Source: an uncultured Planctomycetia bacterium (GTDB lineage: Bacteria > 4484-113 > JAGGVC01). From it: DNA of 64,000 nucleotides. Shown here one piece after another: positions 12,524-57,462 of this stretch. The position numbers and the translations under genes are program-made. Position 1 is the stretch's first letter, and the number at the start of each line of letters is the position of its first letter. The stretch lies in NCBI GenBank assembly GCA_964388445.1, contig CAYMAI010000001.1:336215-400214 (forward strand). Direction: 5' to 3'. Under the pieces are notes generated by a model that had not been told where the DNA came from, did not search any database, and worked only from the letters and a program-made list of their open reading frames with translations.

Positions 12524-12654
12524 TTCGCACTCTATTTTAGACCCGTCGTTTGGCCCACGTGGCGGCGGACTCTGCCTTGCCGCATATTTTTTTTCCGGAC
12601 GGCATGATTGTGATAAACTTGACGCGCCCATGTTGATAGCTTTCCGGAAGTGCC

Positions 12655-18920: not shown

Positions 18921-19529
18921 ATGACTATGGCCGTCATTTCAGTAGAGAATCGATTCAACGCCGTGGAAGTCAACGAGCTAATCGCAAGGTGTCAACGTGG
19001 CGAGCGGACGGCGTTCGACGAGCTGATCACGCGGTATCAGCGGTACGTGTTCAACTTGATTTACCAGCACCTCGGCAACTCGGCGGACATCGAAGACATC
19101 GCCCAGGAAGTGTTTATCCGGATATTTCGTTTTATTAAGAAGTATCGCGGCGAAGCTTCCTTCGAAAGTTGGGTATACAAGATTGTGCTCAATTATTGCC
19201 GCAGCTATGCGAGGCGCAGGTCAATGCTGAACCGCATCTTTTTCGTGCCTGTCGAGCGCGAAGAAGACGAGAAGTCGGTGGACATTATCGGCGACCAGCC
19301 GCAGCCGGACGCCAATCCGATGATGCTCGTGGAAAACCGGCGAATTGCGGACGACATACTCGGCGAACTAAGAAGGCTTCCTCCGATTTATAAGGACATT
19401 CTGATTATGCGCGAGGTGAACGAGCTGTCGTACGAGGAAATCGCCGAAATTCTCGGCATTTCGATCGGCACGGTCAAAAGCCGTATTTCGCGCGCACGTT
19501 CGATTATCAGGGACAAGGTGAAGTTGTAG
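18921..19529 (+). CDS. ECF-subfamily RNA polymerase sigma-70 factor
   Basis: About 200 aa with sigma region 2 (FDELITRYQRYVFNLIYQHLGNSADIEDIAQEVFIRIF) and region 4 HTH (LSYEEIAEILGISIGTVKSRISRARS). Confidence 0.85.
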   Translation: MTMAVISVENRFNAVEVNELIARCQRGERTAFDELITRYQRYVFNLIYQHLGNSADIEDIAQEVFIRIFRFIKKYRGEASFESWVYKIVLNYCRSYARRRSMLNRIFFVPVEREEDEKSVDIIGDQPQPDANPMMLVENRRIADDILGELRRLPPIYKDILIMREVNELSYEEIAEILGISIGTVKSRISRARSIIRDKVKL

Positions 19530-20368
19530 TGGGAAGAGACGAATTCTACAAATTGATTACCGCTTACTTGGACAACCAACTCGACGCCGACACGCTTAGG
19601 CAGTTCACCGAGCGGCTTAGGACCGATTCCGCGCTTCGTGCAGAGGTTCAGGCTCAGCGCAGGATTAAAAACTATCTGCAACACCTGCCCAAAGTCGAAA
19701 TTTTGAACGACAACTTCAAAAAGCAGCTCCTTCACCGGGTGGAGCGCGAAGTCATTCCTCCGAAGCGCAGTTACCGCCTGAATTACGCAACCGTCACGCT
19801 CGCCGTGATATTCGCAAGCTTCCTGTTGGGCGGCGCCGTATTCGGGCTCAAACTTGCTATCGAAGAAATCAGCAAGACCGAAACCTACATAGCCCGCGTC
19901 GAAACCGGCGTCGCGGCCGCGTCGCGGCAATATTCGCGGGAATTCCACTCTCAGCAACCGGCGCTGGAAGCCAAAGTGACGAAGAGAATCCGCTACGACG
20001 TTGTCGGCGTCGTCCCGGAGGAGTTTTTCTCCAGCGTTCTTGCCAGCTATCAAAGCGGCGAAGTTCGCAAGGAAATACTTGCGCCGTTTTTCATACAAAC
20101 CTCGATTTTCGACGGCGCAACGGTCAGCCTCCCCGAAAACGGGATTCTCGGCGGCAAAACCCATTGGGTGAATTTCTCGAAAAGCATACCCACCGAAGTG
20201 CACATCGTCATTCCGTCCTCGCTTGAACCCGGTTTTCGCGACTTCATGAGCCGCCAGAAAGGAACGGTTATGCCGTCGGCGAACACAGGCATTCTTGGAA
20301 ATACGCTGTCCGCAGGCGAAGGCGAGCACGTGATAATAGACATTAGGTTCAGCTCATTCGGCGGTTAG
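19529..20368 (+). CDS. Putative membrane-anchored anti-sigma factor
   Basis: Starts at the sigma gene stop; cytoplasmic N-terminus, single TM (VTLAVIFASFLLGGAVFGL), extracytoplasmic C-terminus; call by context and architecture. Confidence 0.55.
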   Translation: MGRDEFYKLITAYLDNQLDADTLRQFTERLRTDSALRAEVQAQRRIKNYLQHLPKVEILNDNFKKQLLHRVEREVIPPKRSYRLNYATVTLAVIFASFLLGGAVFGLKLAIEEISKTETYIARVETGVAAASRQYSREFHSQQPALEAKVTKRIRYDVVGVVPEEFFSSVLASYQSGEVRKEILAPFFIQTSIFDGATVSLPENGILGGKTHWVNFSKSIPTEVHIVIPSSLEPGFRDFMSRQKGTVMPSANTGILGNTLSAGEGEHVIIDIRFSSFGG

Positions 20369-23485: not shown

Positions 23486-24385
23486 TCAATCCTCCCGGTT
23501 TTCCTTACCGGCTTTGTCCGATTTTTTGGCGGGCGAAAGCGCGGCTGCTATTGCGGAGAGATTTTCACGCGAAAGGTTTTCCGGCCGCTCGCCCGGCGAT
23601 ACTCCCGCCGCGCCGAAGGCCGCTTCGATTTGCTCGCCCGATAAGTGCGGAAAAGTCCGCTTGAGCGCGTTCGCCGCGGTTTTCCGCCTGTGCTTGAAAA
23701 TCCCGGAAGTCAGTTTGAAATATAAATTCGATTCGGGAAGATCGCTCAAATTACGGCTGCGCGGCGCCATCGCGATAATCGCGCTTTCAACCTCCGGCTG
23801 CGGGATAAACGCGTCCGGCGGAACGCCAATCACGCGTTCGGTTGCGAAATACGTTTGCATGAACACCGACAAGCTGCCGTACGAGCGGCTACCCGGCGAG
23901 GCGGTCAGGCGGTCCGCTACTTCGCGCTGGAGCATCACGCACACGAGCGAAATCCACTCGGCATATTCCACCATCGCCTTTAGGAACAGCGATGAAATCT
24001 GATATGGCAGGTTCGCGCAGACCTTTATTCCGCCGCCGCCGAGCGACGGTTCGATTTCTTCGATCAGCTCGCCGAAGCTGTAGGCGTTGAAGCTCTTTTT
24101 GATTAGCGTAATATTCGGAAATTCCTTGAACTCGCGCCCCAAAAACTCGAAGAAAAAATCCTCGATTTCGAACGTGTAAACGCGGCCCGCCTCTCGCGCC
24201 AGCCTGCGCGTAAGAGTGCCTAGGCCGGCGCCCACTTCGACGGCGGTGTCGGTTCGGGCAAGATTCGCCCGACGCGCCAGCGCCTCTTGCGCGCTTTCGT
24301 CAACGAGAAAATTCTGGCCGCGAAGACGGCTCGGCCTGAATCTGAGGCTTTTAAGCGATTCTCGCGTATAGGTTTCCAAAGACAC
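23486..24385 (-). CDS. rsmA: 16S rRNA (adenine1518/1519-N6)-dimethyltransferase
   Basis: KsgA/RsmA signature (RGQNFLVDESAQEALARRANL...VEVGAGLGTLTRRLA). Confidence 0.9.
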   Translation of the reverse strand: MSLETYTRESLKSLRFRPSRLRGQNFLVDESAQEALARRANLARTDTAVEVGAGLGTLTRRLAREAGRVYTFEIEDFFFEFLGREFKEFPNITLIKKSFNAYSFGELIEEIEPSLGGGGIKVCANLPYQISSLFLKAMVEYAEWISLVCVMLQREVADRLTASPGSRSYGSLSVFMQTYFATERVIGVPPDAFIPQPEVESAIIAMAPRSRNLSDLPESNLYFKLTSGIFKHRRKTAANALKRTFPHLSGEQIEAAFGAAGVSPGERPENLSRENLSAIAAALSPAKKSDKAGKENRED

Positions 24386-24481
24386 CGGCGCATGGTAACA
24401 CGCGGCAACGCGCCCCGGCGGGATTATCCGCCGCCGGAGCGCCGAATGTTGCGCATCAGCCCTTCAAACTAGCGCGGCAAG

Positions 24482-25045
24482 TCAAGATTCTTCGGCGGGA
24501 AGAACGGTGATAGGTATTTCAAGCATTTTTGAGTGTGGAGGAGAAGGCTCTATCGGTTGAAATGGACTTATGACATGGCCTTCGTAGGTAACGCTAAATC
24601 CGCCCCATTCTAATGATTCAGCAGTAGTAATGCGGAGCAAGTAATTCCCGGCATTCAAAAGGGGAAGTGTGAATGATGCGGATTCGAGAACAGGGTTGTA
24701 GTCCTGTGTGAAGTACTTAGTAATCCAAGTACTTAAAGTTATGACTCCGCCCTCATTTAGTACAAATGCATTGTCGGTATCCGGCCTCAGGTATTTTAAA
24801 ACATCCGGGTTGAGCCTAGTAGAGAAATGCAAGACAATTTCTGCGTGTTCCCCTTCTTTAACTTGTTCAGGAACATCTACTGCAGTTATGTAGGGGAGAT
24901 AGGCAGTTATCTGGCTCTTTGGATTCGGCGGGGCTATGGCGGTCATCTTACATCCTGCAACCATTATTATTTGCATTAAGGCAGTTGCAAATAACAGCCC
25001 AAATGCGACTACAAATAACTTGCGAAACTCATGAAAGATTTTCAT
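24482..25045 (-). CDS. Lipoprotein of paralogous PITVLPxEES family (member L1)
   Basis: Lipobox (IIMVAGC), conserved YLPY and TAESLEWGG motifs, C-terminal PITVLPAEES; preceded by leader repeat copy. Confidence 0.6.
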   Translation of the reverse strand: MKIFHEFRKLFVVAFGLLFATALMQIIMVAGCKMTAIAPPNPKSQITAYLPYITAVDVPEQVKEGEHAEIVLHFSTRLNPDVLKYLRPDTDNAFVLNEGGVITLSTWITKYFTQDYNPVLESASFTLPLLNAGNYLLRITTAESLEWGGFSVTYEGHVISPFQPIEPSPPHSKMLEIPITVLPAEES

Positions 25046-25487
25046 ATTTCAACTCCTACCATGCGTTAATTGCTGAATAGTAATTTAAGAAACCCGCGAT
25101 GTCGCGCCGCGCAACGCGCATCATCGCCGCATTCGAGCGAATCATTAATAGACTTTCTCTACAAAAACTCTCTCCGTCCACATTCCCGCTCCGAACTTCC
25201 GGAATCCGATTTCCAAATTCGCAAACCCGCTTGTTTCCCAATTCGCAATCCAGTTTGGCGTTTTCCACGCTCCGGGTTTAAACAACGCTCCCGGTTTAAT
25301 AAGAAACACAATCTCCCGCTTCGCTTTGCATCTTGAATACACCTCAGAGTGCGCCACCGCATCCTTGGCGCACAACGGGATTTTACCCCGATTTGCAGGT
25401 TTTAAACCGGCATCAGGCTCGCGTAAATAATCACAATCCCAAGCCGCGGGAAAGCGGTGAAAATGGTGTATAAATCTGTATAATGCG
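25046..25487 (-). repeat. Conserved ~400 bp leader/promoter element, copy 1 of 3
   Basis: Near-identical to 33783..34228 and 56913..57352 from about 25106 (divergent nearer the L1 start); contains inverted repeat GTGCGCCA-N9-TGGCGCAC (25349..25373) and two pairs of direct repeats. Confidence 0.8.
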
Positions 25488-25565
25488 TGTAAAATACATC
25501 GGCGGGTTTATTTGGAAAAGCCAATGATGAGACGAAAACCGAGGTAGTTGCCGTAGGCGCCCGTA

Positions 25566-26846
25566 TTGCAATATCTTGAAGGATGTGAGATATTACGGAC
25601 CGTGACGCATGGTCATCAAACAAAAGGCAAGAGATACAAGCTTCGGACGCTGGCGCTTTACTACAGAAAAGGGGAAGTTGCCGTCGTCGAAAGCTGGCTG
25701 GTTGTAGGCCGGAAGGCTTACGAACTCTCAGCCGTGAGCAGGGAAAGCCTCGACGGCCTTCTTCCTCCGGCTTTTCGCGATGCCATTACGCTCGGCAATA
25801 TCCGGCAAGCCGTGTCGCGTGCCGAAAAAAGCGTCATTGCGGGTGACCGGGTTTACGCACCGGGAGTGAGGCCGGCGATATATTATTGCGGAAAGGAATT
25901 TATCATATCGGATTTGTTTTTCATCGACTCAGAACAGGCGATAAGTTCGTACGAGTTAACGGCGGTAAAACTTGAACGCCCGCACCTGATAACCGCAATA
26001 ACATCTGCCGCTCTATTACCGTTTTGGCACTATTACGGTTTCGATTACGTCGCCAAGTTTTTCGAATCGCGCTACGATATGTATTTAACCTATGTCGCGA
26101 TGCTGGTTCCCGCGATGTATTACTTTTTTCAAAGGCGCACGCTCAAAATAGAATTCGGAGGCCGGTTCGAGCACGTTTACGGCACTCACAAGCTCTCCGG
26201 GGGAGAATTGCCCGAAGTATGCAGCGCGATATCCGCGATGCTCGACAAAAGGCCGCACCTGGAAACGGTTGCCGCCGCGCCTTCGGCCAATGAATCCGCT
26301 AATGCGCTCGTCGGCGAAGGAAAAACGGGCGAAAGCGCTTCGGAGCGGGAATGGGAAAACGCAGACGGCGTTTATGACGAACAAGAAAGAATAAACTCGC
26401 ATATGCGAAAGCGAATGGCGCAAAAGTATTCGGCAATGCAGATGAAGGAGGACTCGCGCGGCTATTACGTGGATGAAAATGATGTGACGGTAACCGCGAA
26501 CAGAGCAAGGATATTCGGAGTCGAATTCCAAATCGACGACGTGGATTCGGTTGAAATTAGGCAAATGGGCTGCTTTGCAATGTTGGCTAATATTATTGGC
26601 ATAATCGCAATGCTCTACGTTTTAATTGATGGAAAAATTCCCGTACCAAAGCCATATAATATGATACTTATTGTTGCATCGCTTGGATATCTTATGTTAA
26701 TTCAATGGCTGTCGAATAAGCAAAAACTTATCGTATATTTCAAAGACGGGACGGTCGAATATTTTCATTCGAATCGCGGAAAGCAACTCGATAAGGCTCA
26801 TCAAGCGCTTTTCTTTTTAACGCTGGACGATGGAGGAGAGGGCTAA
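25566..26846 (+). CDS. Hypothetical membrane protein
   Basis: 426 aa, hydrophobic helices mid-protein and at C-terminus; 3' third noticeably AT-richer than background; non-ATG start in track, true start uncertain. Confidence 0.4.
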   Translation: MQYLEGCEILRTVTHGHQTKGKRYKLRTLALYYRKGEVAVVESWLVVGRKAYELSAVSRESLDGLLPPAFRDAITLGNIRQAVSRAEKSVIAGDRVYAPGVRPAIYYCGKEFIISDLFFIDSEQAISSYELTAVKLERPHLITAITSAALLPFWHYYGFDYVAKFFESRYDMYLTYVAMLVPAMYYFFQRRTLKIEFGGRFEHVYGTHKLSGGELPEVCSAISAMLDKRPHLETVAAAPSANESANALVGEGKTGESASEREWENADGVYDEQERINSHMRKRMAQKYSAMQMKEDSRGYYVDENDVTVTANRARIFGVEFQIDDVDSVEIRQMGCFAMLANIIGIIAMLYVLIDGKIPVPKPYNMILIVASLGYLMLIQWLSNKQKLIVYFKDGTVEYFHSNRGKQLDKAHQALFFLTLDDGGEG

Positions 26847-26864
26847 TGGGTTTCGCGCTTGCAA

Positions 26865-29018
26865 TTATTCCCGCGCCTCTGAGTTGATTTTTCCGTTTCC
26901 AAATTTCGCCGCCAATTTCAAATATGCCGCGTATACAACGTAAAGGAGGCTGCCGTTTATCATCCCGATTGCCGCGCCGAGAAGCGTGCGGGTAAGGCTG
27001 ATTCCAATCGGCGTATGCAAATGGCAGAACGTGTTGACGATGCTCGTGAACGCCACCGCGCCGATGAGAAGAAGCACGATGGAGGGTTGTTTGCGCCTGA
27101 AAAAGTACGCGAGGAAAAAGAAAAACGCCGGAAGCCCGAACAGCTCTTTCGTTCGCGGCCTGACTGCAAGCAGGTCTTCGAGCCGCTCGCGGAACAAAAG
27201 CTCCAATTGCGCGACCCCGATCGGCGCTTCGTTTCCGCTGCGAAGAAGTATCAGCGCGAGCGCGGCGATGCCGAGAAACACGACCATCATATCCACGAAT
27301 TTTATGTCGAGGTCGAGGAGCGAATTCAGCCGTTCAATCCAGCCCGGAAGTTTTTTCGCATTTCCGTTTTCGCCGCCGCCGGAAACCTCGCCCTTAAACT
27401 TGAGCGATGCAAGATTCCAAAAATACACCGCGATTAAAAGAACGGGCAGCGCGAGAGATAGCATAACGCCTTTGAAGGTTTCCACTTTTACGAACGCGTC
27501 CGCCGAGTTTATCAGCGCGTACACGAAAATTCCGCCCAGCGCGCTTGCGGCGATTGCGATTAGATATGCCGAAAGCACGCGGCCGTAGTTCGCCGGAACT
27601 TGTTCCTTGCCGCGAAGCAGCAGCGCGATGGCGAGCGCGGCGCCCGCGACCGGCGCGAGAATCGCGGCGACAAGCGCCCAGCCGGAATATAGCAGGGCGG
27701 GCGATTTGATAAACAGCGCGGCGCTTCCCGCGATGGAAAGAGCCCAGAAAGCCGGCTCCATCCACATCGGCGCCGCGAAAAACAGCCGGATCATCAATGC
27801 TGCGAGCGAGATGACGCCGAGCGCGGCGAGAAGTTTCAGCGGATGCAGGTCTTGAAAATCCGGCGGCGACGGTTCGCGCGCGACGTTGAAGCCGTGGCGG
27901 TTTATCGCATCGAAAAGCGAGCCGTAATATTCGAGGTTGAATTCGAGAGCGCTCTCGGATTTTGCGCCGCGCCCTTCGTCCACGAAAAGCCCGGTGAAAA
28001 ACGGACGGACGTATACCAGCCTGACGTTTCTTTCCTTCAGCGCTCGAACGAACCGCGACTGCGCGACGGATGGCTTTTGTTTGACCATTTCTTCCGCGCT
28101 GATGCTGTGCGTTATTACGACGTCCGGCGAAAGCATCGACGCGAGCGCGCCGGCGCCGTCCTGAATTTCGAATTCTATCCAGCCCCAATACCAGCCGTAT
28201 TTTTCGATTTCCGCTGCGGTTGCGGCGACGTTGTTCGGATAACCGAGAACCGCGTCGCCCTCGAAAATGACGGTGCGCACGTCCGCGGGCGCGGCCGGCG
28301 AAATCGTAAGCTCGCTCACCTTTTGCAAATCGGCGAAGACCGCGGCAAGGTCGTTTGCGTCGTACTTCGGATTATTCGTCACTCGCGCGACGACGTCGAA
28401 GCCCGCCGCTCGTACCCGACGCCATTCGCCCTTGTCGAAACCGAGATTTATTTTATTCAGGTCAACTTCGGCTTCGCGCGGAATGCTGATTAGAAACCAG
28501 CCGCCCGCGGCAGCCCCCGCATCCGGCGATGGCAGCCGTTCGAGCGCGACCGGAACCGAAATGAAATTTTCGCCGTATAGCAGCTTCAGCCTTTCGCGCG
28601 CAGCCTCCTCGCGCTCTTCGCCGAAAATGCAGAAATTGCGGCGCGCCAAAACCGAATCGAGAATATCCGCCAGGCGCGGATTATCCTCCGCCCACTTTAA
28701 AATCAAGTCGTCGCCGGCTTCGAATAGGTAACCCTTTTCATGCGCTGCGAGAAAAGTGAGTTCGCTGACCGCCATGCTGGAAAAGCCGGTCGAGCGAAGC
28801 CTTGCGAGCACGCTTTCTATCGATTGGCCGCTAACCTGCGCAAGCTGGAAAGCCGCGTTGTAATCGAGACAAACGACGGCGTCGCGATAGCGCCGGTCCC
28901 AATCGGCGCGCTGTACGAGCAGCAGAATCGCCGAAATCGTTCCGAGCGCGATCAAAAACAGCGGGATGAAAACGCTTGCGGGTACGCCGATTATTCGCAA
29001 AGGAGTTTTACCTGCCAT
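26865..29018 (-). CDS. Large membrane protein: N-terminal extracytoplasmic domain plus C-terminal polytopic domain
   Basis: 717 aa; single N-terminal TM, ~300 aa soluble region, then 8+ hydrophobic helices; no catalytic motif recognised. Confidence 0.55.
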   Translation of the reverse strand: MAGKTPLRIIGVPASVFIPLFLIALGTISAILLLVQRADWDRRYRDAVVCLDYNAAFQLAQVSGQSIESVLARLRSTGFSSMAVSELTFLAAHEKGYLFEAGDDLILKWAEDNPRLADILDSVLARRNFCIFGEEREEAARERLKLLYGENFISVPVALERLPSPDAGAAAGGWFLISIPREAEVDLNKINLGFDKGEWRRVRAAGFDVVARVTNNPKYDANDLAAVFADLQKVSELTISPAAPADVRTVIFEGDAVLGYPNNVAATAAEIEKYGWYWGWIEFEIQDGAGALASMLSPDVVITHSISAEEMVKQKPSVAQSRFVRALKERNVRLVYVRPFFTGLFVDEGRGAKSESALEFNLEYYGSLFDAINRHGFNVAREPSPPDFQDLHPLKLLAALGVISLAALMIRLFFAAPMWMEPAFWALSIAGSAALFIKSPALLYSGWALVAAILAPVAGAALAIALLLRGKEQVPANYGRVLSAYLIAIAASALGGIFVYALINSADAFVKVETFKGVMLSLALPVLLIAVYFWNLASLKFKGEVSGGGENGNAKKLPGWIERLNSLLDLDIKFVDMMVVFLGIAALALILLRSGNEAPIGVAQLELLFRERLEDLLAVRPRTKELFGLPAFFFFLAYFFRRKQPSIVLLLIGAVAFTSIVNTFCHLHTPIGISLTRTLLGAAIGMINGSLLYVVYAAYLKLAAKFGNGKINSEARE

Positions 29019-29823: not shown

Positions 29824-30477
29824 TTACCCGAAATGATGCAGAAATTTTTCAATATCCGAATCGGTTCCAATGACCCACAAATGAGAATCAGCCGGTATTT
29901 CCCCGTCAGGATTGGGATTTACGTCAAGTTTGCCGCCCGTCTCCAGCGCGACCACGTTGAAACCGTGCTTTGCCCTAAGGTCTGCGCCGCGCAACGTCTT
30001 TCCGACCAGCTTTTTGGGAGTTTGAACTTTCGAAAACTTGTAGCCGCCCGGAAGGTCCACGATTTCGCCGATGGCGTGGAACTCGATTAAATGCACCAGC
30101 CGTTTCGCCATGTCCTTTTCGGGAATGATAACCTCGTCAGCCCCGACTTTTGAAAGAATGCGTGCGTGAACTTCGTCGCGCGCCTTCGCCAGAACCCGCG
30201 GCACGCCGAGCTCTTTTAGGCACATCGTGGCGAGAATGCTGGCTTCTAGGTCGCGCCCGATGGCGACGATTACGGCGTCGAAATTGGAAATGCCGACGGC
30301 TTCCAGGCTCGACGGGTCGGTCGCGTCAAGTTCCACCGCGTTTCGCGCGATGTCCGACGCCTTTTGGACGATCGACAGGTCGCGGTCGATGGCAAGCACC
30401 TCGTGCCTGTCCGCGAGAAGCGTCTCGACCGCCGCCAGCCCGAAGCGCCCAAGCCCGATTACAGCGTATTGACCCAT
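29824..30477 (-). CDS. TrkA/KtrA-like RCK regulatory protein (TrkA-N plus TrkA-C)
   Basis: From internal ATG: MGQYAVIGLGRFGLAAVETL... Rossmann TrkA-N motif and C-terminal TrkA-C-like segment. Confidence 0.8.
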   Translation of the reverse strand: MGQYAVIGLGRFGLAAVETLLADRHEVLAIDRDLSIVQKASDIARNAVELDATDPSSLEAVGISNFDAVIVAIGRDLEASILATMCLKELGVPRVLAKARDEVHARILSKVGADEVIIPEKDMAKRLVHLIEFHAIGEIVDLPGGYKFSKVQTPKKLVGKTLRGADLRAKHGFNVVALETGGKLDVNPNPDGEIPADSHLWVIGTDSDIEKFLHHFG

Positions 30478-30673
30478 AGGGTTGACCCGCCGCAATTATA
30501 TCACGCGACGCCGCCACAACCGGAGCGCGATTGAAGGCCGATTCGGCTCCAGAACTTGGCCGGTTCGGCTGGCCGGAATACGCTTAAGGTATCAAGCGCC
30601 AAGAGCGCCCCGGCGGGAGAGGCCGCCGGAGCGCCGTAAACTGGGCGTCAACCCATCAATCTAGCGCGACGAG

Positions 30674-31279
30674 TCAGGAACCTTCGGGGGGGAGGACGGT
30701 GATGGGTATCAGTAAGTAAGTTGCATGTTCGTGATTTGGTCTAAGGCTAGAGCCTTGCCAATCTCCATTAATCGCTGGAATTCCATTGCCGTATTCATAC
30801 GAAACACCCAATCCGCCCCATTCGGCGGAATCCGCTGTCGGAATTTCCAGCATATACTCACCTTTCGCTAGTCCATCGATATAATACGAAACTGATGTCT
30901 TAGAAGGTTTCACAATGCCCACAACCCGAACCCAAGTGGTTAATCTGATAATCCCGGCGGAATTAGGTTTCAATGGCAAGGCACTTTCAAGGAAATACTC
31001 CTTAAGCGCGTCCGGAAATCTGTCTGCCGAAACTTCCAAATCAACCTTAAAAGCCTCTCCTTCGCGAATCTTATCTGGAATGGTTACCTCCTTGACGTAA
31101 GGTAAATATTCCGCAACACCAAAACCGCCGGGGGTGGCATAGCCGATTTTGCAGGAACTTGAAAAGCAAAAAACAGCAAATGCAAGGGTAAACACGGTAA
31201 TGGTCAAATGCCCGCAAGCGTCGGAGAAATTAGGTTTGTTGTTCATGTTCATTGCCTGTTTGTTACGTAAGTTAAACAT
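30674..31279 (-). CDS. Lipoprotein of PITVLPxEES family (member L2)
   Basis: Lipobox (FCFSSSC), EYLPYV, TADSAEWGG, C-terminal PITVLPPEGS; start may be an internal Met (31252 or 31246). Confidence 0.6.
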   Translation of the reverse strand: MFNLRNKQAMNMNNKPNFSDACGHLTITVFTLAFAVFCFSSSCKIGYATPGGFGVAEYLPYVKEVTIPDKIREGEAFKVDLEVSADRFPDALKEYFLESALPLKPNSAGIIRLTTWVRVVGIVKPSKTSVSYYIDGLAKGEYMLEIPTADSAEWGGLGVSYEYGNGIPAINGDWQGSSLRPNHEHATYLLIPITVLPPEGS

Positions 31280-31285
31280 TTCAGG

Positions 31286-31795
31286 TCAGGATTCTTCGGC
31301 GGGAAGAACGGTGATGGGGAATTCCAAAGTTGTCTCGTGCTCGTGTTTAGGCCTATCCCTACCATAAAATCCATAATACTTAATTTCGGTGCCCCCCCAT
31401 TCCTCTGAATCCGCAGTTGCAATTACAAGTATGTATGTACCTGCGCTTAGTGGCGGAATTGAAACCGAAATTGAAGATCGCAAAGGGGAACTTGCGAAAT
31501 CGAAAGGATCATATTGCATCCATGTGCTTACTAGAATCTTGTCTCCCGGCATATAAGTGTAATTTGCAGGATCGCTCTCGCCCGCCATAAAACCCCGAAG
31601 TGCATTGGGATTGCGCAATGCTGAGACTTGCAGTATGACATCAAATTCTTCATCTTCAAAAAGATATTCAGGGACAATTGCAGACTCCACAAATGGAAGA
31701 TATTCCCTATTCCAATTGGGAACAGGGCCTGCAATTCCGCGGTTACTGCACGAAGTCAATGTCAAGCTCATCAGACACAGCAAGACAAATCTCAT
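31286..31795 (-). CDS. Lipoprotein of PITVLPxEES family (member L3)
   Basis: Start set at internal ATG 31795 (MRFVLLCLMSLTLTSC, SD-like AAGGTGG upstream) rather than track start 31897, which would overlap the peptidase; EYLPFV, TADSEEWGG, PITVLPAEES. Confidence 0.6.
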   Translation of the reverse strand: MRFVLLCLMSLTLTSCSNRGIAGPVPNWNREYLPFVESAIVPEYLFEDEEFDVILQVSALRNPNALRGFMAGESDPANYTYMPGDKILVSTWMQYDPFDFASSPLRSSISVSIPPLSAGTYILVIATADSEEWGGTEIKYYGFYGRDRPKHEHETTLEFPITVLPAEES

Positions 31796-31853
31796 GTACA
31801 GCTTACCACCTTGTTGTTGAGCGTGTGGGTGTATGTTTCTCATTCCTAACCTC

Positions 31854-33782
31854 CTACCATCCATTGATTGCAGCGTAGTAATTTGCAATGCCAGCAATTG
31901 GCACTGCTCCGGTTTGATCCAAGTCCCGTCTGCGAGTATTTACTATTCTTGCTTGAACTTGGATATAGGTTGAGTCTGGGCGAATTCGGTACAAATGAAA
32001 TGCAAGCGATGAAACTTGTGGTGCACATGCGGATGTCCCATTAAAGTGATCGTAGCCGGAAAAAGGTATTGTTGATAAATGGCGACTTCCAGACATGAAA
32101 TCCATAAAGTCATATATTCCCGATACCGGATAGGTTGTGTAGTTATCGCTGAAATAGTTAGAACCGTTGCCGATTTCTCCCGTGTCCCACTGAGTTCCGT
32201 AAAAGTTTGTCCTAAGCCCACTCACGCCTAAAACGTTGTCATGCGCCGCGGGATATGTGCGCAAGTGCTTGCGCTCGTTTCCAGCGCTTGCAACATATAA
32301 CCGATCGTTTCGCCTTAGATCAAGCGATATTTCATCCTTCATGGTCTTCGGAGGATTCCAGTCCATGTACTTCCATCCTCCACCAAAACTCATATTGACT
32401 ACTCTTACCTTCTCTCTCCAATTGAGATGAGGCTGTCGTGGATCGTGATGAAATTCGAACCTTAGCGCTCTTATTGCTTTTAGCATCGAACCTGCAGTAA
32501 ACTTTTCCAAATATCCATCGACAATATTGTCAACCTTTAATCGTATGGGGAGAATTTTTGCATTTGGAGCCATGCTTGCAGTGCCGATGGAGTTGTTCGT
32601 AGCAGCCGAAATAATTCCCGCAACATTTGTACCATGTTTTGCCAGATTTCCGGTAACAGGATCGATAAATGTAGGCTCTCCCTTACCTTTGCCTACTTCA
32701 TAGGACTTATCCCAGCAGTCGACACCGATGTTGCTAATATGCCAATCTCGAACTCCTCCACCTTGAGTTGGACCGTTCAGATCTGGATGGTTTCTATAAA
32801 CCCCCGAATCAATGACCGCAACCATTTGGTCCGAAAAATTAGCGCTTCCTTGACCCCCTTCGGGCCCATAAGGTATTTGAGGAATCTGGTTCACGAAAAA
32901 GTGATTGATATAAAGCGCTTTGTTGCTGGTGTAATGCGTGTCGTTCGGAGGAGGATAATCTGCGGTATATTCGTCCATTGTATTTGGCTGAGCCTGTTCA
33001 ATCTTCTGATGAGTGCTGAAATATGCGTAAGCGAGGTCGAATGTAGAAAATCTTTCCTCAGTGAATCTAAACTGAAACCATGCGATTGAATTTCCCTCTT
33101 CTGGTTCTTCCGGCCCTTCAAACCAAGAAAAGATTACGTAAAGATCGTTAGCGGCAATGAAATTGCTAATTTCCTGCTCCGTCACTTCCTGCTTGAATAA
33201 CACAATCATCTCGTCTTCAGCGATTTCGAATTCCCCGCCAGCGGGTGCAGTCCAAATAATTGTCTCCGGTGATTCTTCATTATAGTTTGTAGTAAAAAAG
33301 TCCTGCAGAGGTTCGTTAGTTACCAGAATGTTTCCGTTGGGCAGTTGATACGTGCCTGTAAACGGATCGGGACTTGAGAGGCGGTTAACGGTAACAAATT
33401 GCCCCGGAGAAATCTCGACAACGCTTTGGGAGATTACAGGACCCCAGGGATTAATCTGGTCCAAATAAGGATCCAACAGCGATTGCGGATCACCGATAGG
33501 ACCTGCTATCTGCCTTTCCCAGCCTTCAGGCGGGTCGCCGCCGCTATCGAATGGCCCTTCGCCTCCGCCACCGGGATCGTTAGCAATTGCGGTTTGCCGA
33601 GTTTTCTCTGGGTCTTTGGAATCGGCACCATCCTGCGATTGCTGCGAATCGATTCTTGCCCCTGCGGTCATCTTGGCGTCCCTGTCACAAGACATCAGCG
33701 CAAAGGCGCACATCATTACAAGGGCGAGTAAAACTACCCCCCCCCCCCAGCCGGGGGCAAACGAAAACTTGGACTTTTTCAT
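31854..33782 (-). CDS. S8-family (subtilisin-like) serine peptidase, lipoprotein
   Basis: Catalytic triad motifs AVIDSGV, HGTNVAGII, GTSACAP; lipobox ALMSC; first ~40 aa and upstream leader nucleotide-identical to the peptidase at 55161..56912; 12-nt G run in signal-peptide codons. Confidence 0.85.
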   Translation of the reverse strand: MKKSKFSFAPGWGGGVVLLALVMMCAFALMSCDRDAKMTAGARIDSQQSQDGADSKDPEKTRQTAIANDPGGGGEGPFDSGGDPPEGWERQIAGPIGDPQSLLDPYLDQINPWGPVISQSVVEISPGQFVTVNRLSSPDPFTGTYQLPNGNILVTNEPLQDFFTTNYNEESPETIIWTAPAGGEFEIAEDEMIVLFKQEVTEQEISNFIAANDLYVIFSWFEGPEEPEEGNSIAWFQFRFTEERFSTFDLAYAYFSTHQKIEQAQPNTMDEYTADYPPPNDTHYTSNKALYINHFFVNQIPQIPYGPEGGQGSANFSDQMVAVIDSGVYRNHPDLNGPTQGGGVRDWHISNIGVDCWDKSYEVGKGKGEPTFIDPVTGNLAKHGTNVAGIISAATNNSIGTASMAPNAKILPIRLKVDNIVDGYLEKFTAGSMLKAIRALRFEFHHDPRQPHLNWREKVRVVNMSFGGGWKYMDWNPPKTMKDEISLDLRRNDRLYVASAGNERKHLRTYPAAHDNVLGVSGLRTNFYGTQWDTGEIGNGSNYFSDNYTTYPVSGIYDFMDFMSGSRHLSTIPFSGYDHFNGTSACAPQVSSLAFHLYRIRPDSTYIQVQARIVNTRRRDLDQTGAVPIAGIANYYAAINGW

Positions 33783-34228
33783 GTCCTACTCCTTTGGTTG
33801 AATTTTGAAATATCGCGTACGCTTGGGCGGGCGTTCTTACGCCGCGCCGCGCGCATCATCGCCGCTTTCGAGCGAATCCTTAATAGACCTTCTCTACCAA
33901 AACTCTCTCCGTCCACATTCCCGCTCCGAACTTCCGGAATCCGATTTCCAAATTCGCAAACCCGCTTGTTTCCCAATTCGCAATCCAGTTTGGCGTTTTC
34001 CACGCTCCGGGTTTAAACAACGCTCCCGGTTTAATAAGAAACACAATCTCCCGCTTCGCTTTGCATCTTGAATACACCTCAGAGTGCGCCACCGCATCCT
34101 TGGCGCACAACGGGATTTTACCCCGATTTGCAGGTTTTAAACCGGCATCAGGCTCGCGTAAATAATCACAATCCCAAGCCGCGGGAAAGCGGAGAAGCTT
34201 TTGTATAAATTTGTATAACCGGTCCGCG
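33783..34228 (-). repeat. Conserved leader/promoter element, copy 2 of 3
   Basis: Identical or near-identical to 56913..57352 and 25106..25487; identity continues into the peptidase coding region to about 33660. Confidence 0.85.
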
Positions 34229-42663: not shown

Positions 42664-42735
42664 TGCGGGGTGGAGCGGTGGTAGCTCATCGGGCTCATAA
42701 CCCGAAGGTCGGGGGTTCAAATCCCCCCCCCGCAA
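42664..42735 (+). tRNA. tRNA-Met (anticodon CAT)
   Basis: Manual cloverleaf fold: 7-bp acceptor stem TGCGGGG/CCCCGCA, D-arm GAGC/GCTC, anticodon stem TCGGG/CCCGA with loop CTCATAA, T-arm GGGGG-TTCAAAT-CCCCC; CCA not encoded. Elongator Met versus lysidine Ile2 not distinguishable. Confidence 0.8.
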
Positions 42736-42926: not shown

Positions 42927-44864
42927 TCAATACCCGCCGGAGTCCACGGCCTTCTGCACCTGCAGGAGCAGCTCGACGTTGCTCTTCGTTTTGATGAGCT
43001 TGCTGATGAGCCTGTTCATCCGCTCCGCCTCGTCCATTTCGGCAATCATCTTGCGAAGCTGCCACAGGCAATCCATTTCGTCGGGATTGTAAAGAAGCTC
43101 CTCGTGACGAGTGCCGCTCTTCAACAGGTCGATGGCTGGGAATATTCGCTTGTCCGCAAGCTCCCGCATAAGGTGGATTTCGCTGTTCGCCGTGCCTTTG
43201 AATTCTTCGTAAATGATGTCGTCGAGGCGCGAGCCGGTTTCGACGAGCGCGCTCGAAAGAATCGTCAGGCTTCCGCCGCCCTCGATGTTGCGCGCCGCGC
43301 CGAGAAAGCGCTTGGGTTTGTGCAGAGAGTTCGGGTCGAGACCGCCGGTCAGCGTCTTGCCGCTGGGCGGGCAGGTCAAGTTGTACGCGCGGGCGAGTCT
43401 GGTGAGGCTGTCGAGAAGTATCATCACGTCTTTGCCCTGTTCCACGCGGCGCTTGGCATATTCGATTGCAAGCTCCGCCGTTTGGATGTGGCTTTCCGGC
43501 TTTTCGTCGAACGTGGACGAAATGACGAGGCCTTGGATGTTGCGCTCGAAGTCGGTCACTTCTTCTGGGCGCTCGTCGATGAGTAGTGCGATAAGCTCGA
43601 TTTCGGGATGATTGCGCGCCACGGACGCCGCGATTTTCTTCAAAAGGACGGTTTTGCCGGCCTTGGGTTTCGCCACGATTATGCCGCGCTGGCCGCGCCC
43701 GATTGGCGAAAACAGGTCGAGAAGCCGGGTGCTGGTTTCGAACTGGTCGGTTTCGAGAAATATCCGCTGGTCGGGGTAAATCGGAACGAGCTTTTCGAAC
43801 GGCGTCGGGATACGGTAAGAGTCGGGATAGTGCCCGTTTATTTTGTCGATTTTGACGACGCTCTTATAGCGTTCCTGATCGCGCGGCGGCCTTATGGTGC
43901 CTACCACGACGTCGCCGGAACGAAGTCCGAATTTCTTGATTTGGCTGATGCTTACGTAAATGTCTTCTTCGCCGTAACGGAATTCCTTCTGGCGGATGAA
44001 CCCGTAAGTGCCGTCGGGATGTATATCCAGAACTCCCTTCTGAGCTTCTCCGTCGCCGGACGCCTGAGGTTGATAAGCGGTACGCTTAGCTTGTTGGACG
44101 CGCTGTTCGCTCTTGGGCGGTCTGCCGCGCCTCGGACGGTCGTCGCGCTGAGGTTCGTCCGCGGCGATTTCGTTGTCAATGTCGTCATATACCGGCGCAC
44201 GCTCGGGAGTTTTTTCCCGTGAGCCGAAGTCTTTGCTTACAGGCGGCTCGACGATTTCCTCTTCTTCCTCTTCGTACACTTCCGGTGTTCTGGCTCTGGC
44301 GGGACCGGCCTGGCGAACCGGCTCGGGCCTTTCTTCCTCTTCTTCCCGTTCTTCGCGCACGTATGCCGGCGGCTCGCGCTTTACAACGGGGCGAAGCGGC
44401 TCGCGCTGAACGGCAGGCGGCGAATACTCGCGGCGCGCCGCGGGACGCTGAGGTTCGGGCTCGATTTCGTCCACCCCACCATCCCGGAGTTCGAATTCGT
44501 CTTCGTATTCGTCCGGATCGGGCAAGGGAGCGGGCTTGGGGATCGGCGGCCGTTCGTACGGCTTGCGCGCGGGAACGAAGGAATCTCTGGTCGGCCCGGG
44601 GCGAGACCTTTCCTCCTCGCTCTTGGCATCTTGCACCGCTTCGATTTCCTTGGGCGCTGCGTGCGTTTTGGGCGCTCCCGGCGCACTCACGATGCTTACC
44701 GAAACCTTTCTGAAAAGCACGCGCTCGACGTCCATTATTTCGTCGATGATTTCGTTCTTTTTAAGCTTTCGGTAATTTTTGATTCCCCTTTCCTTGGCGA
44801 GATCGTAAAGATCGTTAAGGGTCATCGCCTCAAGCTCTTCAGCGCTTCTGGACCTGTTCGACAT
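42927..44864 (-). CDS. rho: Transcription termination factor Rho with long low-complexity N-terminal insertion
   Basis: 645 aa; Rho N-terminus (LNDLYDLAKERGIKNYRKLKKNEIIDEI), ~230 aa Arg/Glu/Pro-rich insertion, then RNA-binding and RecA-type ATPase core (Walker A GKTVLL). Confidence 0.95.
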   Translation of the reverse strand: MSNRSRSAEELEAMTLNDLYDLAKERGIKNYRKLKKNEIIDEIMDVERVLFRKVSVSIVSAPGAPKTHAAPKEIEAVQDAKSEEERSRPGPTRDSFVPARKPYERPPIPKPAPLPDPDEYEDEFELRDGGVDEIEPEPQRPAARREYSPPAVQREPLRPVVKREPPAYVREEREEEEERPEPVRQAGPARARTPEVYEEEEEEIVEPPVSKDFGSREKTPERAPVYDDIDNEIAADEPQRDDRPRRGRPPKSEQRVQQAKRTAYQPQASGDGEAQKGVLDIHPDGTYGFIRQKEFRYGEEDIYVSISQIKKFGLRSGDVVVGTIRPPRDQERYKSVVKIDKINGHYPDSYRIPTPFEKLVPIYPDQRIFLETDQFETSTRLLDLFSPIGRGQRGIIVAKPKAGKTVLLKKIAASVARNHPEIELIALLIDERPEEVTDFERNIQGLVISSTFDEKPESHIQTAELAIEYAKRRVEQGKDVMILLDSLTRLARAYNLTCPPSGKTLTGGLDPNSLHKPKRFLGAARNIEGGGSLTILSSALVETGSRLDDIIYEEFKGTANSEIHLMRELADKRIFPAIDLLKSGTRHEELLYNPDEMDCLWQLRKMIAEMDEAERMNRLISKLIKTKSNVELLLQVQKAVDSGGY

Positions 44865-49472: not shown

Positions 49473-50062
49473 TCGCCGGAGTTTAGCCGTCGCGTGCCGG
49501 TTAGTTTCTCGAAATATTCAAGCTGAGCTTTGCCATGGATTCGCTGTTTTTCCCGGTTGGATTTTTGCGTTTCTGCGAACCTTTCCAATTCCACTTCGGT
49601 TTTGCCTTCGATTTCCGGCTTTGTGAAATCCGCGCTCCATATTTGGCATTCCGTTTCCAGCCGATCTTTCAGCATCCATGCAATCTCCATCGTTTCGGCG
49701 CGGAAATGCGCGCCTGCTTGGCCGCTTGCGCAATCGCCGCAGAAACTCATCGAGTCTCCCATGGCGATTCCGTTAATCACTGGCGGCATAGCGACGCCGT
49801 TCACGGTTTCAAGGACGATGTAGTTCACGCCCAGGTCGGTAATGTGCTGGCGGATTACCCCGTCCGACGGAAAAGAAAAACCCGAAAAACTTTTGTTCGA
49901 CGCCTGCGCCTGCAGCGAAGCGGGATAAGGCAAAGGCTGCTGCGGTTCGGCGAATGATGGATTCGGCAGCTTTCCGAGCGCGAAATACATCGCCAGCGCG
50001 CCGAATATGAACGACAGTGCGGCAACCCTGAAGATGAAAAACAAACCCGGTCTTTCGTTCAC
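49460..50062 (-). CDS. Membrane-anchored hypothetical protein (unclassified family, intact copy)
   Basis: N-terminal TM, conserved block FSFPSDGVIRQHITDLGVNYIVLETVNGVAMPP, Cys-containing C-terminal region; paralog of the disrupted copy at 50373..50978. Confidence 0.5.
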   Translation of the reverse strand: MNERPGLFFIFRVAALSFIFGALAMYFALGKLPNPSFAEPQQPLPYPASLQAQASNKSFSGFSFPSDGVIRQHITDLGVNYIVLETVNGVAMPPVINGIAMGDSMSFCGDCASGQAGAHFRAETMEIAWMLKDRLETECQIWSADFTKPEIEGKTEVELERFAETQKSNREKQRIHGKAQLEYFEKLTGTRRLNSGDQSS

Positions 50063-50372
50063 GAATTTCCACCCAAACTCCCGAATATGGACGGCTAAAC
50101 AGACTCGAAAGCGCAGATTTTGTTCCTTGCTTGACTTTTGCGAAAATTAAAACATCATCCGCTGGGTGATACCTTTGACCACCACAATCTGACTGACTAT
50201 CGGTGAAGCAACGAATGAGCGCATGGAAGAATTTGTAAAAGTGTGGAGGTAGCCGCTTTACCAAAAAACACTCACACAACAGGATGTTTAGTTTCCTGCA
50301 ACTTTAATGGATACTTTGCAGGTACCCATTTTGTAAAATTGAGCTTCCTCCTTTAGATAAAAGGTCTGGGCT

Positions 50373-50978
50373 TCATTGGTTTTGCGGTGCAGTTGTGGAC
50401 TCTGAATAACTAGCTATGAATCCCTCAATATACTCCAGCTGTGCTCTACGGTGGTTGTTAATAATCGTGCGTCGCGCAAGCTTGCTATTGTAAATCTTAT
50501 CGATTTCCTTATCTGTTTTACCCTCGATTTGATGAAGCTTGATTGGAACTTCCTCTATTGCCACTCTTTGCTTGATATCTCTGCGGATTTGCATTGCTAG
50601 TTCCATAGTTTCTTTCATAAATGCCGACCCGGCATCGCGGCCACCTCAGCCCGCCCCGATTGACGGTTCAGACCCAAGCTCGATACCATTTACAATCGGA
50701 GGCAAAGCCATGCCGTTCACCGTTTCCAGTACAATGAAGTTTACGCCGCAGTAGTTGGTAATTTGCCTTACCGCACCATCAACCGGAAAGGAATAATCCG
50801 TAATTATGGAATCGCTTCTTTCCAATAAAATTGATGACGGGTACTTCTGCAAGCCTACCTCCTGGGCGGCCGCATAATTCAGCTGGCATACAAATGACAA
50901 GTAAACTGCCACGCCGCCTAGGGCGAAGCAGATAGTGGCAATTCTGAATGCACTAAAGAACTGAAAACCCTTCTTCAT
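50373..50978 (-). pseudogene. Disrupted paralog of 49460..50062 (split into two frames)
   Basis: Track ORFs 50646..50978 and 50373..50618 match the N- and C-terminal halves of the intact copy but are in different frames; region is AT-richer than background. Confidence 0.5.
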
Positions 50979-51069
50979 CTCGTACCTCCGCTGCGCTAAT
51001 TCGCAGTTCTGAAATGTTACCTAATATTATGAAAATCTTCAATCCGGTGTTTTCCAGACTGCCCGTCCT

Positions 51070-51294
51070 TTAAAACATCATCCGCTGGGTGATTACGACG
51101 ACGATTGCGAGAACGAGCGTAAGAAGAATGTTGAAAAGAACCGCAAGTTCCATACAGCCCATTATTTCGCCGTGTTTGTAAGAGCCTCTCGTGGATTTTT
51201 TCAAAAGAAATCGTATTTCGAACGGCAGTAAAATTAGCTCGATTGCGAGAATGAAAACCAAAAAATTCCTTACGAAAAAATCGAGCGCGTTCAA
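51070..51294 (-). CDS. Small two-helix membrane protein (possible flippase-like partner of GT2/GT-C genes)
   Basis: 74 aa, two hydrophobic helices; directly downstream of GT2 gene; function inferred from context only. Confidence 0.4.
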   Translation of the reverse strand: MNALDFFVRNFLVFILAIELILLPFEIRFLLKKSTRGSYKHGEIMGCMELAVLFNILLTLVLAIVVVITQRMMF

Positions 51295-51327
51295 ACTGAC
51301 GCTCCTTGTCCGGCTGGTTCCGCGGTT

Positions 51328-52086
51328 TTACGGAAGCGCTTTCGGGATTTTTTTAAGCACGCGCAGCCTGAAACTAATGGAAAATATTTCAAACAGCATT
51401 TTCGTTGCGTCCCGCAGAAAATTCACCTTGCTTTCCGGACTGTCCACCCAAATGACCGGCACTTCTTTGTATTTGAAACCCAAAAGGCTTGCAAGCGCAA
51501 GAAGTTCGAGGTCGAAACTCCATCCCCAGACGCGCTGGCGTGGAAAAATCTCGTCCGCGGCTTTCGACGAAAACAGCTTGAAGCCGCACTGCGTGTCGCG
51601 CACGCCCGGAATAATCAGGGCGCGGGTTATCGAGCGCATCACGTTTCCCGCAAGCCGCCGGTGAATTGGCTGGCGGACTCGCACGTCGCTGTCCGGCAGG
51701 CTTCGCGACCCGAAAACGACGTCCGCCCCTTGTTCCGCCCAAAACAGCAGCTTTTTCACCTCGCCAATCGGCGTGGATAAATCCACGTCCGAAAACAGAC
51801 GATATTTGCCGCGAGACTCCTGCATACCGCGGTTGACCGCCGCGCCTTTCCCTTTTCTGGATTCCGGCGTCGAAACGAGCCTTAATCTAATCTCCGGGTT
51901 CGCCGCCGCGAAGTCTTTCACGATTTCCGCGGTCGCGTCGCTCGAATGGTCGTCAACCACGATAATTTCGACTGGCCGCGTGCTTGCCGACGCGAAATCG
52001 AAAAGCGCGGCAAGGCATGCCGGCATGCGCTTTTCTTCGTTGAACGCCGGCACTACGATTGACAAAAATATTCCACTTTCAGCCAA
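51328..52086 (-). CDS. GT2-family glycosyltransferase (polyprenyl-phosphate sugar synthase-like, DPM1/GtrB/ArnC-type)
   Basis: GT-A N-terminus LSIVVPAFNEEKRMPACL...EIIVVDDHSSDATAEIV with DxD-type acidic motifs. Confidence 0.85.
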   Translation of the reverse strand: MAESGIFLSIVVPAFNEEKRMPACLAALFDFASASTRPVEIIVVDDHSSDATAEIVKDFAAANPEIRLRLVSTPESRKGKGAAVNRGMQESRGKYRLFSDVDLSTPIGEVKKLLFWAEQGADVVFGSRSLPDSDVRVRQPIHRRLAGNVMRSITRALIIPGVRDTQCGFKLFSSKAADEIFPRQRVWGWSFDLELLALASLLGFKYKEVPVIWVDSPESKVNFLRDATKMLFEIFSISFRLRVLKKIPKALP

Positions 52087-52134
52087 GGCACCGGATTTTA
52101 CTTTATATTCCGCCCGCTGGGATAGAAATTCGGG

Positions 52135-53922: not shown

Positions 53923-53980
53923 AGTTTACATCAAATTCGAAATTCGCGGCTAACAGGCGTGGATAAACCTCATTGCGCGC

Positions 53981-54075
53981 TAAGGCGCGAATATCCGAAT
54001 CGCGCCGTTCGCGATTACGCCGTCCGGCCGGCGCCCCGCGATGACCGCAAATCTCGCTTCGCGACCCCCGATTGG
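53981..54075 (-). other. Fragment homologous to the 3' end of the GT-C glycosyltransferase genes (gene remnant)
   Basis: About 90 nt near-identical to the last codons and stop region of 57463..59307 and 52135..53922 (CGCGAATATCC(G/A)AATCGCGCCGTTCGCGATTAC...), between lipoprotein L4 and GT-C paralog 1. Confidence 0.5.
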
Positions 54076-54157
54076 AACACGCGGCAACGCGCCCCGGCGG
54101 GAGAGGCCGCCGGAGTGCTGTAAATTGCGCATCAGCCCTTCAATTTAGCGTGACAGG

Positions 54158-54607: not shown

Positions 54608-54644
54608 CTAATCCACCTACCTTAATGATTTTCGCTTGGCTGCG

Positions 54645-55151: not shown

Positions 55152-55160
55152 ATCAACCTC

Positions 55161-57352: not shown

Positions 57353-57462
57353 GGAATGACGCCGCGAGAAATGCCTATTATCGCGAGGGGCAAGCACTTA
57401 ATTAGAATGCAGCCTCGCGGCTCGCGCATATAGGCATCGAGCTAACGTGTGCGAATGGCTCG

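Follow-up and report, generated by a model that had tools for sequence, protein, structure and literature searches.

To our knowledge, nearly all documented cases of repeat-driven phase variation come from host-adapted pathogens and commensals, and they are usually explained by immune evasion. We examine here a stretch of 64,000 nucleotides (the window) from the genome of an uncultured Planctomycetia bacterium (GCA_964388445.1, contig CAYMAI010000001.1), in which two diverged genes for S8-family (subtilisin-like) peptidases, B and C, each stand at the head of a small operon behind the same 5' module, with an uninterrupted run of 12 G (G12) inside the signal-peptide codons. We consider it likely that slipped-strand mispairing at this coding poly-G tract makes two surface peptidase operons phase-variable, and that gene conversion homogenises their modules. 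Parts of such an arrangement are familiar from other bacteria. In Neisseria gonorrhoeae, a poly-G tract in the signal-peptide codons of PilC switches expression on and off by frameshifting, although PilC itself is an unrelated pilus-associated adhesin. In the Vlp/Vsp proteins of Mycoplasma, a conserved module of promoter, 5' untranslated region and prolipoprotein signal precedes divergent mature regions, and each paralog switches independently through a homopolymer, a poly-A tract in the promoter. Control is transcriptional there but would be translational here, where the tract lies in the coding sequence, and the products there are repetitive antigens rather than enzymes.

The multi-copy Opa surface-protein family of Neisseria is switched by slipped-strand mispairing at CTCTT repeats in the leader-peptide codons (PMC3960869). 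Opa resembles the present loci in having a simple repeat inside signal-peptide codons, conserved 5' regions among paralogs and frequent recombination within the genome; it differs in that Opa proteins are beta-barrel adhesins of a host-adapted pathogen and carry a pentamer repeat, whereas here S8 lipoprotein peptidases of an uncultured sediment lineage carry poly-G or GA/CT dinucleotides, with a three-gene operon behind the switch. NalP (AspA) of Neisseria meningitidis is a lipid-anchored subtilisin-like serine protease with a coding poly-C tract, ON in about half of strains (PMC5472700), and the length of its coding poly-C/G tract is 9-13 (PMC5953494). Like NalP, the window peptidases are S8 proteases, with a putative surface lipid anchor and probable phase variation through a coding G/C tract, but NalP is a single-copy autotransporter with a beta-domain. 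Membership of the NalP-type autotransporters was considered for the window peptidases and rejected, as they have no C-terminal beta-domain and only Peptidase_S8 is found in Pfam (in B this sole domain covers residues 319-617 of 642, nearly to the C-terminus); NalP is an analogue. Gardnerella nanH3, in which a coding poly-C tract of variable length truncates the protein (bioRxiv 10.1101/2020.09.16.300947), and Listeria inlA, in which length variation of a 5' poly-A tract truncates a surface protein (PMC2831843), likewise have a coding-region homopolymer that truncates a surface or secreted protein, but they are single genes of host-associated bacteria, with neither a paralog module nor a family-wide recurrence of repeat types. 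The window proteins belong to none of these protein families, and a literature search gave no match for the exact combination of a phase-variable subtilisin lipoprotein with a homopolymeric tract. The mechanism is of a known kind; what is new is its setting and breadth, namely an uncultured sediment lineage, convergent repeats across a family and homogenised modules.

The two peptidase genes, their tracts and the modules at their 5' ends, together with a third, related leader, lie in the window as follows.

31854-33782, minus strand: peptidase B, S8 family, putative lipoprotein, 642 amino acids (aa), with D325, H383 and S584 present
55161-56912, minus strand: peptidase C, putative S8 lipoprotein, 583 aa, Pfam Peptidase_S8
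33737-33748, minus strand: G12 tract of peptidase B, nucleotides (nt) 35-46 of the coding sequence (CDS), in the codons for W12-G-G-G-V16
56867-56878, minus strand: G12 tract of peptidase C, at the same position and in the same context as in B
33659-34219, minus strand: switch module copy B, comprising leader, ribosome-binding site, ATG and 41 codons
56789-57349, minus strand: switch module copy C, of which 56789-57209 matches copy B exactly
25096-25484, minus strand: leader copy A, about 390 nt, without the G tract

An earlier note on this DNA had described a 12-G run within an identical 5' coding block of two diverged S8 genes, and this is confirmed at both coordinates: each gene starts ATGAAAAAGTCCAAGTTTTCGTTTGCCCCCGGCT-G12-TAGTTTTACTC on the minus strand, and the tract is read as TGG GGG GGG GGG GTA. 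The extent of the block, put there at the first ~120 nt of coding sequence, was understated. An ungapped comparison gives exact identity over 421 nt (33659-34079 = 56789-57209), most of it non-coding leader, and homology continues with about a dozen mismatches to about 34219, so that the block comprises 124 coding nt and about 437 nt upstream; its edges are sharp, with identity dropping to background on either side. Copy B has an AAGGAG ribosome-binding site at 33789-33794 ahead of the ATG at 33782. The 41 shared codons encode a putative signal peptide, MKKSKFSFAPGWGGGVVLLALVMMCAFALMSC, followed by DRDAKMTAG; read by eye, the signal combines a basic n-region with a hydrophobic core and an L-M-S-C lipobox, and the G12 tract falls at the n/h-region boundary. 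Behind this constant front the two proteins diverge (BLASTP: aa 1-41 identical, diverged after aa 41, 26% identity overall with 24% gaps). Both match Pfam Peptidase_S8 (PF00082; E = 2e-29 for B and 2.5e-26 for C), and Asp325, His383 and Ser584, the Asp-His-Ser triad, are invariant in the family alignment. They are distant subtilases (Protein Data Bank (PDB) E-values around 1e-9) with an N-terminal region of roughly 300 aa of their own, and look-ups of B and C as exact proteins returned no entry.

Neither the length of the tract nor its codon use looks like chance. G/C runs of 5, 6, 7, 9 and 12 nt occur 27, 1, 2, 1 and 2 times in the window, with counts dropping about five-fold per extra base. 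Of the Gly codons, 14.6% are GGG, and the 14 other Gly-Gly-Gly tripeptides in 20 window genes are all written without this codon. Besides the two tracts, the window has one long G/C run, a C9 (42723-42731) in the tRNA-Met gene (42664-42735), spanning the T-stem 3' strand and the 3' acceptor strand; it is structural and away from gene starts. Runs of 7 nt are found in the small lipoprotein genes of operon B (31392-31398 and 30686-30692). Among A/T homopolymers, the window has a T8 (12587-12594) and an A8 (52856-52863).

The effect of tract length on the reading frame was determined by substituting lengths in silico in the window sequence. With 9, 12 or 15 G the gene remains in frame, with one glycine fewer or one more at 9 and 15; 10 or 13 G give ...WGGG(G)SFTRPCNDVRLCADVL and then a TGA stop after 32 codons, and 11 or 14 G place a TAG immediately after the glycines, bearing out the earlier expectation that gain or loss of a single base would break either gene. 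As the tract lies at CDS nt 35-46, the product of an out-of-frame allele is a peptide of at most 32 residues. The next in-frame Met after the tract is residue 23, and a product starting there (MMCAFALMSC...) would presumably not be exported, because the n-region and half of the hydrophobic core are gone. As a simple sequence repeat, the tract is one in which a one-unit change shifts the reading frame, and both window copies exceed the threshold that PhasomeIt applies to poly-G/C tracts (9 or more; PMC5953494).

These properties suggest the following scheme. The two peptidase operons would be contingency loci, each with one and the same module at its head (leader, ribosome-binding site and signal peptide), and slipped-strand mispairing during replication would alter the hypermutable G12 by one or more G. 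At 12 G (or 9, or 15), translation from Met1 would yield an intact signal peptide and the peptidase would be exported and lipid-anchored (ON); at 10, 11, 13 or 14 G, translation would come to a stop within 16-32 codons (OFF), and the closely linked genes downstream would probably be affected by polarity. Since these genes begin 9-11 nt past the peptidase stops, early termination could lower their expression in this way, and the window encodes Rho (42927-44864). Gene conversion would keep the paralog modules identical, and through the tract-less leader A a small-lipoprotein gene would share the presumed transcriptional control. What can be read directly from the DNA is the anatomy, the effect of tract length on the frame, the tract polymorphism between strains and orthologs and the family-wide recurrence of repeats; from these we infer the rate and reversibility of switching, surface exposure, polarity, homogenisation by conversion and any selective benefit.

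A second strain of the species (strain 2; GCA_013328955.1, contig JAANMV010005703.1, our loci L001/L002, from a fragmented assembly) is 99.07% identical to the window over 8.7 kb, with 77 single-nucleotide polymorphisms (SNPs) and 4 indels. Its operon B tract has 13 G where the window has 12, and consequently its peptidase (P0001, 620 aa, equal to window residues 23-642) has been called from Met23. There are no SNPs at all between 28757 and 33838, and operon B differs between the strains only by two leader SNPs (33838 and 33855) and by the tract. The adjacent 3.4 kb (25370-28757) contains 75 SNPs, and the SNP-free 5 kb suggests recent recombination or a sweep over operon B. As far as the contigs reach, the operon arrangement is that of the window. 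A 30-nt leader pattern, identical in all three window copies, gave no hits in the GTDB species genomes and retrieved from the JGI metagenomes only the strain-2 contig already known; Logan contigs of the species, from runs SRR36519100, SRR36519102, SRR10580906 and SRR10807893, and NCBI contigs end at or before the repeat.

Relatives of the peptidases, at 33-47% protein identity, are confined to metagenome-assembled genomes (MAGs) labelled 'bacterium' or 'Planctomycetales bacterium' (AUK046, CSMAG_2248, Zod_Metabat.1143, 4484_113 and Ww346) and to unbinned contigs. Where downstream sequence is readable, the peptidase is followed by one or two small proteins in the same order. GuaA of the window has 64% identity to that of AUK046 and 60% to that of 4484_113, which places the organism in the same deep uncultured group as these two; judging by the name, the group appears to be GTDB candidate phylum 4484-113, a phylum without cultured representatives (bioRxiv 10.1101/2022.11.20.517286). 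Within the first roughly 60 nt of the CDS, these relatives carry repeats of their own.

L009, L012, L014 and L017: ATGAAACGAATTAAGATGATTCA-G9-TAGGCGCA, out of frame, with TAG three codons past the glycines
L013: interrupted tract GGGCGGGG, 8 nt, in frame, with a canonical lipoprotein signal, MKRIKMIQGGVGAFSATLIAVSVAFFIFAC
L071: TCA-G9-CAG, in frame (MSGGGQALLW...)
L010: (AG)9, in frame (MGHREREREAL...)
L015: (GA)7, in frame (MYEREREVF...)
L016: (GA)7, out of frame; one unit more gives MNRFTRERERHLLKGALAVVLVCFVFTLSAC
L072: (CT)7, in frame (...SSLSLSLAV...)
L018: (AGAAG)3, in frame

With the window and strain-2 copies included, 8 alleles are in frame and 6 are out of frame, and every one of the latter is a single repeat unit short of or beyond the frame that gives a textbook signal peptide. 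(Two further JGI relatives, P0008 and P0012, whose calls start at the lipobox 'MSC', are outside this set of alleles read as DNA.) The most direct comparison is between L012 and L013, syntenic orthologs with 85% nt identity over 9.6 kb that differ exactly at the tract; as the 8-nt tract of L013 is in frame, the ON length of the G9 module is taken as 8. At least five different repeat sequences occupy the same site in independent assemblies, and elsewhere in the 172 kb of these loci a search for G/C runs of at least 8 and AG/CT arrays of at least 7 units returned only the tRNA C9 and, in L072, a C8. When diverged orthologs carry unlike repeats at one functional position, in mixed frames, they show the comparative signature of contingency loci, and this family-wide pattern is the strongest evidence for phase variation. 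The tract-length variation that the earlier note had anticipated is thus found both between strains, as 12 and 13 G, and among distant orthologs. The C8 run of L072 (3410-3417) lies near the 3' end of its peptidase gene.

Several observations weigh against phase variation. The difference between 12 and 13 G could be a homopolymer error or reflect a difference in sequencing platform, and only two strains of this species were found, giving one tract comparison. Two family members, L011 (with a 1-nt linker deletion) and L073, have no repeat, so the repeat is common in the family but not universal. The lipobox of B and C was read by eye rather than by a predictor, which leaves them putative lipoproteins, and a scan of the leader for the sigma-70 consensus found no promoter. 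Finally, all five out-of-frame poly-G alleles are at the ON length plus 1 (G13 and four times G9), a uniformity that could point to technical bias or to recoding. L073 (3001-4734) is a low-GC relative of the C type in which an in-frame TAA splits the gene into two calls.

Some of these points would be expected if the shared block were passive, the product of a recent segmental duplication or gene conversion in which the G run is a passenger, and if the 13 G allele and the out-of-frame relatives were errors or pseudogenes. The two window tracts are one duplicated event and not independent; a single other strain was compared, homopolymers are error-prone, and L011 and L073 show that the family does include decayed members. 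Such an account must nevertheless accommodate at least five different repeat sequences at one site in independent assemblies, out-of-frame alleles that each come back into frame with the change of a single repeat unit, a pair of syntenic orthologs (L012 and L013) that differ exactly at the tract, the extreme codon usage at the tract, and a strain difference in operon B that, two leader SNPs aside, consists of the tract. We regard it as unlikely.

The constant ON+1 length bears instead on programmed recoding, in which ON+1 alleles would be expressed through RNA polymerase slippage (with one G lost) or a ribosomal +1 shift on GGG-G. The five out-of-frame poly-G alleles are never ON-1, ribosomes might pause at the G run, which looks like a Shine-Dalgarno sequence, and both module types have a TAG behind the tract in the third frame. 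Fixed recoding sites are, however, out of frame in all orthologs, yet both window copies, L071 and L013 are in frame; the route is closed to the members with dinucleotide repeats; the ON+1 observations represent only about four independent ones; and no stimulatory element was found. Expression of ON+1 alleles by recoding therefore seems quite improbable, and equally so the corollary that the tract would set a product ratio rather than an on/off state. Beside switching, it is a smaller possibility that the consistent ON+1 state reflects a G run that is also read through by slippage.

Under phase variation by tract length, the identity of the paralogous modules calls for its own explanation, and the third leader is informative here. 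Leader copy A is 95-97% identical to copies B and C and 100% identical to B over 33899-34192 (294 nt); it departs from B and C about 50 nt ahead of the peptidase start codon and continues with a separate ribosome-binding site and a signal peptide unlike theirs. A comparable arrangement recurs in AUK046, where the paralogs L012 and L017 have an exact 190-nt common front end with G9. This block contains an upstream region with TATAAT, a ribosome-binding site, the G9 signal peptide and about 38 codons, and identity decays behind it. The sharp block edges, the 294-nt identity of the third leader and the recurrence in AUK046 argue that gene conversion has acted repeatedly on the switch modules of paralogs, which fits better than a single recent duplication, and conversion would then be the process that homogenises the modules. 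The earlier proposal of gene conversion or a shared 5' module fits the same three features.

A constant front joined to variable bodies could also arise by cassette or antigenic variation, with peptidase bodies recombined onto one constant expression module, as in pilE/pilS or vlsE. The constant 5' module, the sharp boundary at aa 41 with highly divergent bodies behind it, the conserved 3' ends of the operons and the 89-nt direct repeat that brackets operon C would all suit this. Yet leader, ribosome-binding site and start codon are complete in all three copies, the 64-kb window showed no silent copy lacking a promoter, the bodies of B and C have separate orthologs elsewhere, and the arrangement is unchanged in strain 2 as far as its contigs reach, which makes cassette exchange very improbable. 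The earlier note had offered 'phase-variable' and 'cassette-like' together: the former is favoured by tract variation between strains and orthologs, and the latter is opposed by the completeness of every copy. It had also proposed a search for the constant N-terminus on other peptidase bodies. A chimeric protein query that joined the constant 41 aa to the linkers of B and C retrieved relatives of the C prodomain only and no such carrier, a weak negative because the window's own proteins were not returned; the AUK046 paralogs show the same pattern.

How far these conclusions extend is a broader question. That a whole, apparently free-living, anoxic-sediment lineage ('Planctomycetales bacterium 4484_113', AUK046, CSMAG_2248, Zod_Metabat.1143 and the window genome) runs S8-peptidase operons as contingency loci, with modules kept identical by gene conversion, is a claim for which we see the balance as even. 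We are equally divided on whether at least five repeats have arisen at the same signal-peptide spot (two poly-G contexts besides the window's, GA, CT and AGAAG). If true, the loci would provide stochastic bet-hedging over extracellular proteolysis in deep-biosphere bacteria, with possible benefits such as alternation between producer and cheater states or avoidance of phage receptors. The full signature, comprising a long tract within signal-peptide codons, ON and OFF alleles side by side, convergence of unlike repeat types on one site and switch modules probably homogenised by conversion, is seen here on putative surface peptidase operons of an uncultured candidate lineage that inhabits seeps, vents and springs; if confirmed, the 'phasome' idea would extend to free-living sediment bacteria and point to other pressures, such as phage, predation or the cost of public goods. 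Such loci are also systematically mis-annotated in MAGs, because gene callers truncated or mis-started 6 of the 14 alleles examined and because the repeat breaks short-read assemblies.

Units A, B and C are paralogous operons, A consisting of one small protein and B and C each of a peptidase and two small proteins.

31286-31843, minus strand: small lipoprotein B1, 185 aa by the strain-2 gene call, starting 11 nt past the peptidase stop
30674-31246, minus strand: small lipoprotein B2, 190 aa, C-terminus ...PITVLPPEGS
30605-30706, minus strand: conserved 3' end of operon B, the last B2 codons and a GC-rich hairpin
54645-55151, minus strand: small lipoprotein C1, 168 aa, starting 9 nt past the peptidase stop
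54158-54607, minus strand: small lipoprotein C2, 149 aa, C-terminus ...PITVLPSEES
24482-25045, minus strand: small lipoprotein A, 187 aa, the sole gene behind leader A

The small proteins form one family, ending in PITVLPxEES. A structural model of small lipoprotein A is an Ig-like beta sandwich (pLDDT 71); the small lipoproteins matched no Pfam family and had no significant PDB sequence or fold match, and they can be named Ig-like at most. The conserved 3' end of operon B has paralogous copies at 24413-24514 and 54089-54190 (72-84% identical), and the GC-rich hairpin is present in all three operons.

The leader may serve as a common transcriptional control region, and its direct repeats are candidate regulator sites.

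33945-34034, minus strand: direct repeats in the leader, a 24-nt tandem pair at 33945-33992 and a 15-nt pair at 34002-34034

The 24-nt tandem repeat reads TTGCGAAT(T)TGGGAAAC... and the 15-nt direct repeat TTAAACC(C)GGGAGCGT. A known structured RNA leader, such as a riboswitch or another Rfam family, was considered and rejected: at the gathering threshold Rfam matched only the tRNA-Met in the window, the leader had no covariance match at E up to 10, and the z-score of its RNA fold (-1.76) was not significant. Further downstream, C5-GGCT-G12 (33740-33757) could form a 5-bp GC hairpin followed by TAGTTTT; this terminator-like hit was at chance level in a scan, and the AUK-type module does not conserve it. 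In strain 2, the distal part of leader A (L002 97-277, window 25307-25487) carries 14 clustered substitutions, for example GTGCTTTTTTGCGCAAGTTTAATTTTGG, that match none of the three window copies, a possible sign of mosaic conversion or of additional leader copies in other parts of the genome. Beside leader A, a 426-aa open reading frame at 25566-26846 (plus strand) is intact in the window and split into two gene calls in strain 2 by a 1-nt deletion (AATTTATC to AATTATC), and strain 2 has a T9 run where the window has TTTGTTTTT.

Flanking direct repeats, a sign of mobility, were found at operon C and at neither A nor B. The copies, approximately 89 nt long (53972-54060 and 57455-57543), are 85% identical, with a 56-nt core at 93%; one lies at the 3' end of a PMT_2 glycosyltransferase gene (57463-59307) and the other just upstream of its paralog (52135-53922). 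From this layout, operon C looks to have been inserted between tandem PMT_2 genes or to have replaced part of them. A gene for an ECF (extracytoplasmic function) sigma factor and a neighbouring gene for a possible anti-sigma factor (18921-20368) lie about 5 kb from operon A. The G+C content is lower (0.48-0.52) in the patches that hold the three operons (24001-26000, 30001-34000 and 50001-58000) than in surrounding housekeeping genes such as rho, guaA and xseA (0.55-0.57).

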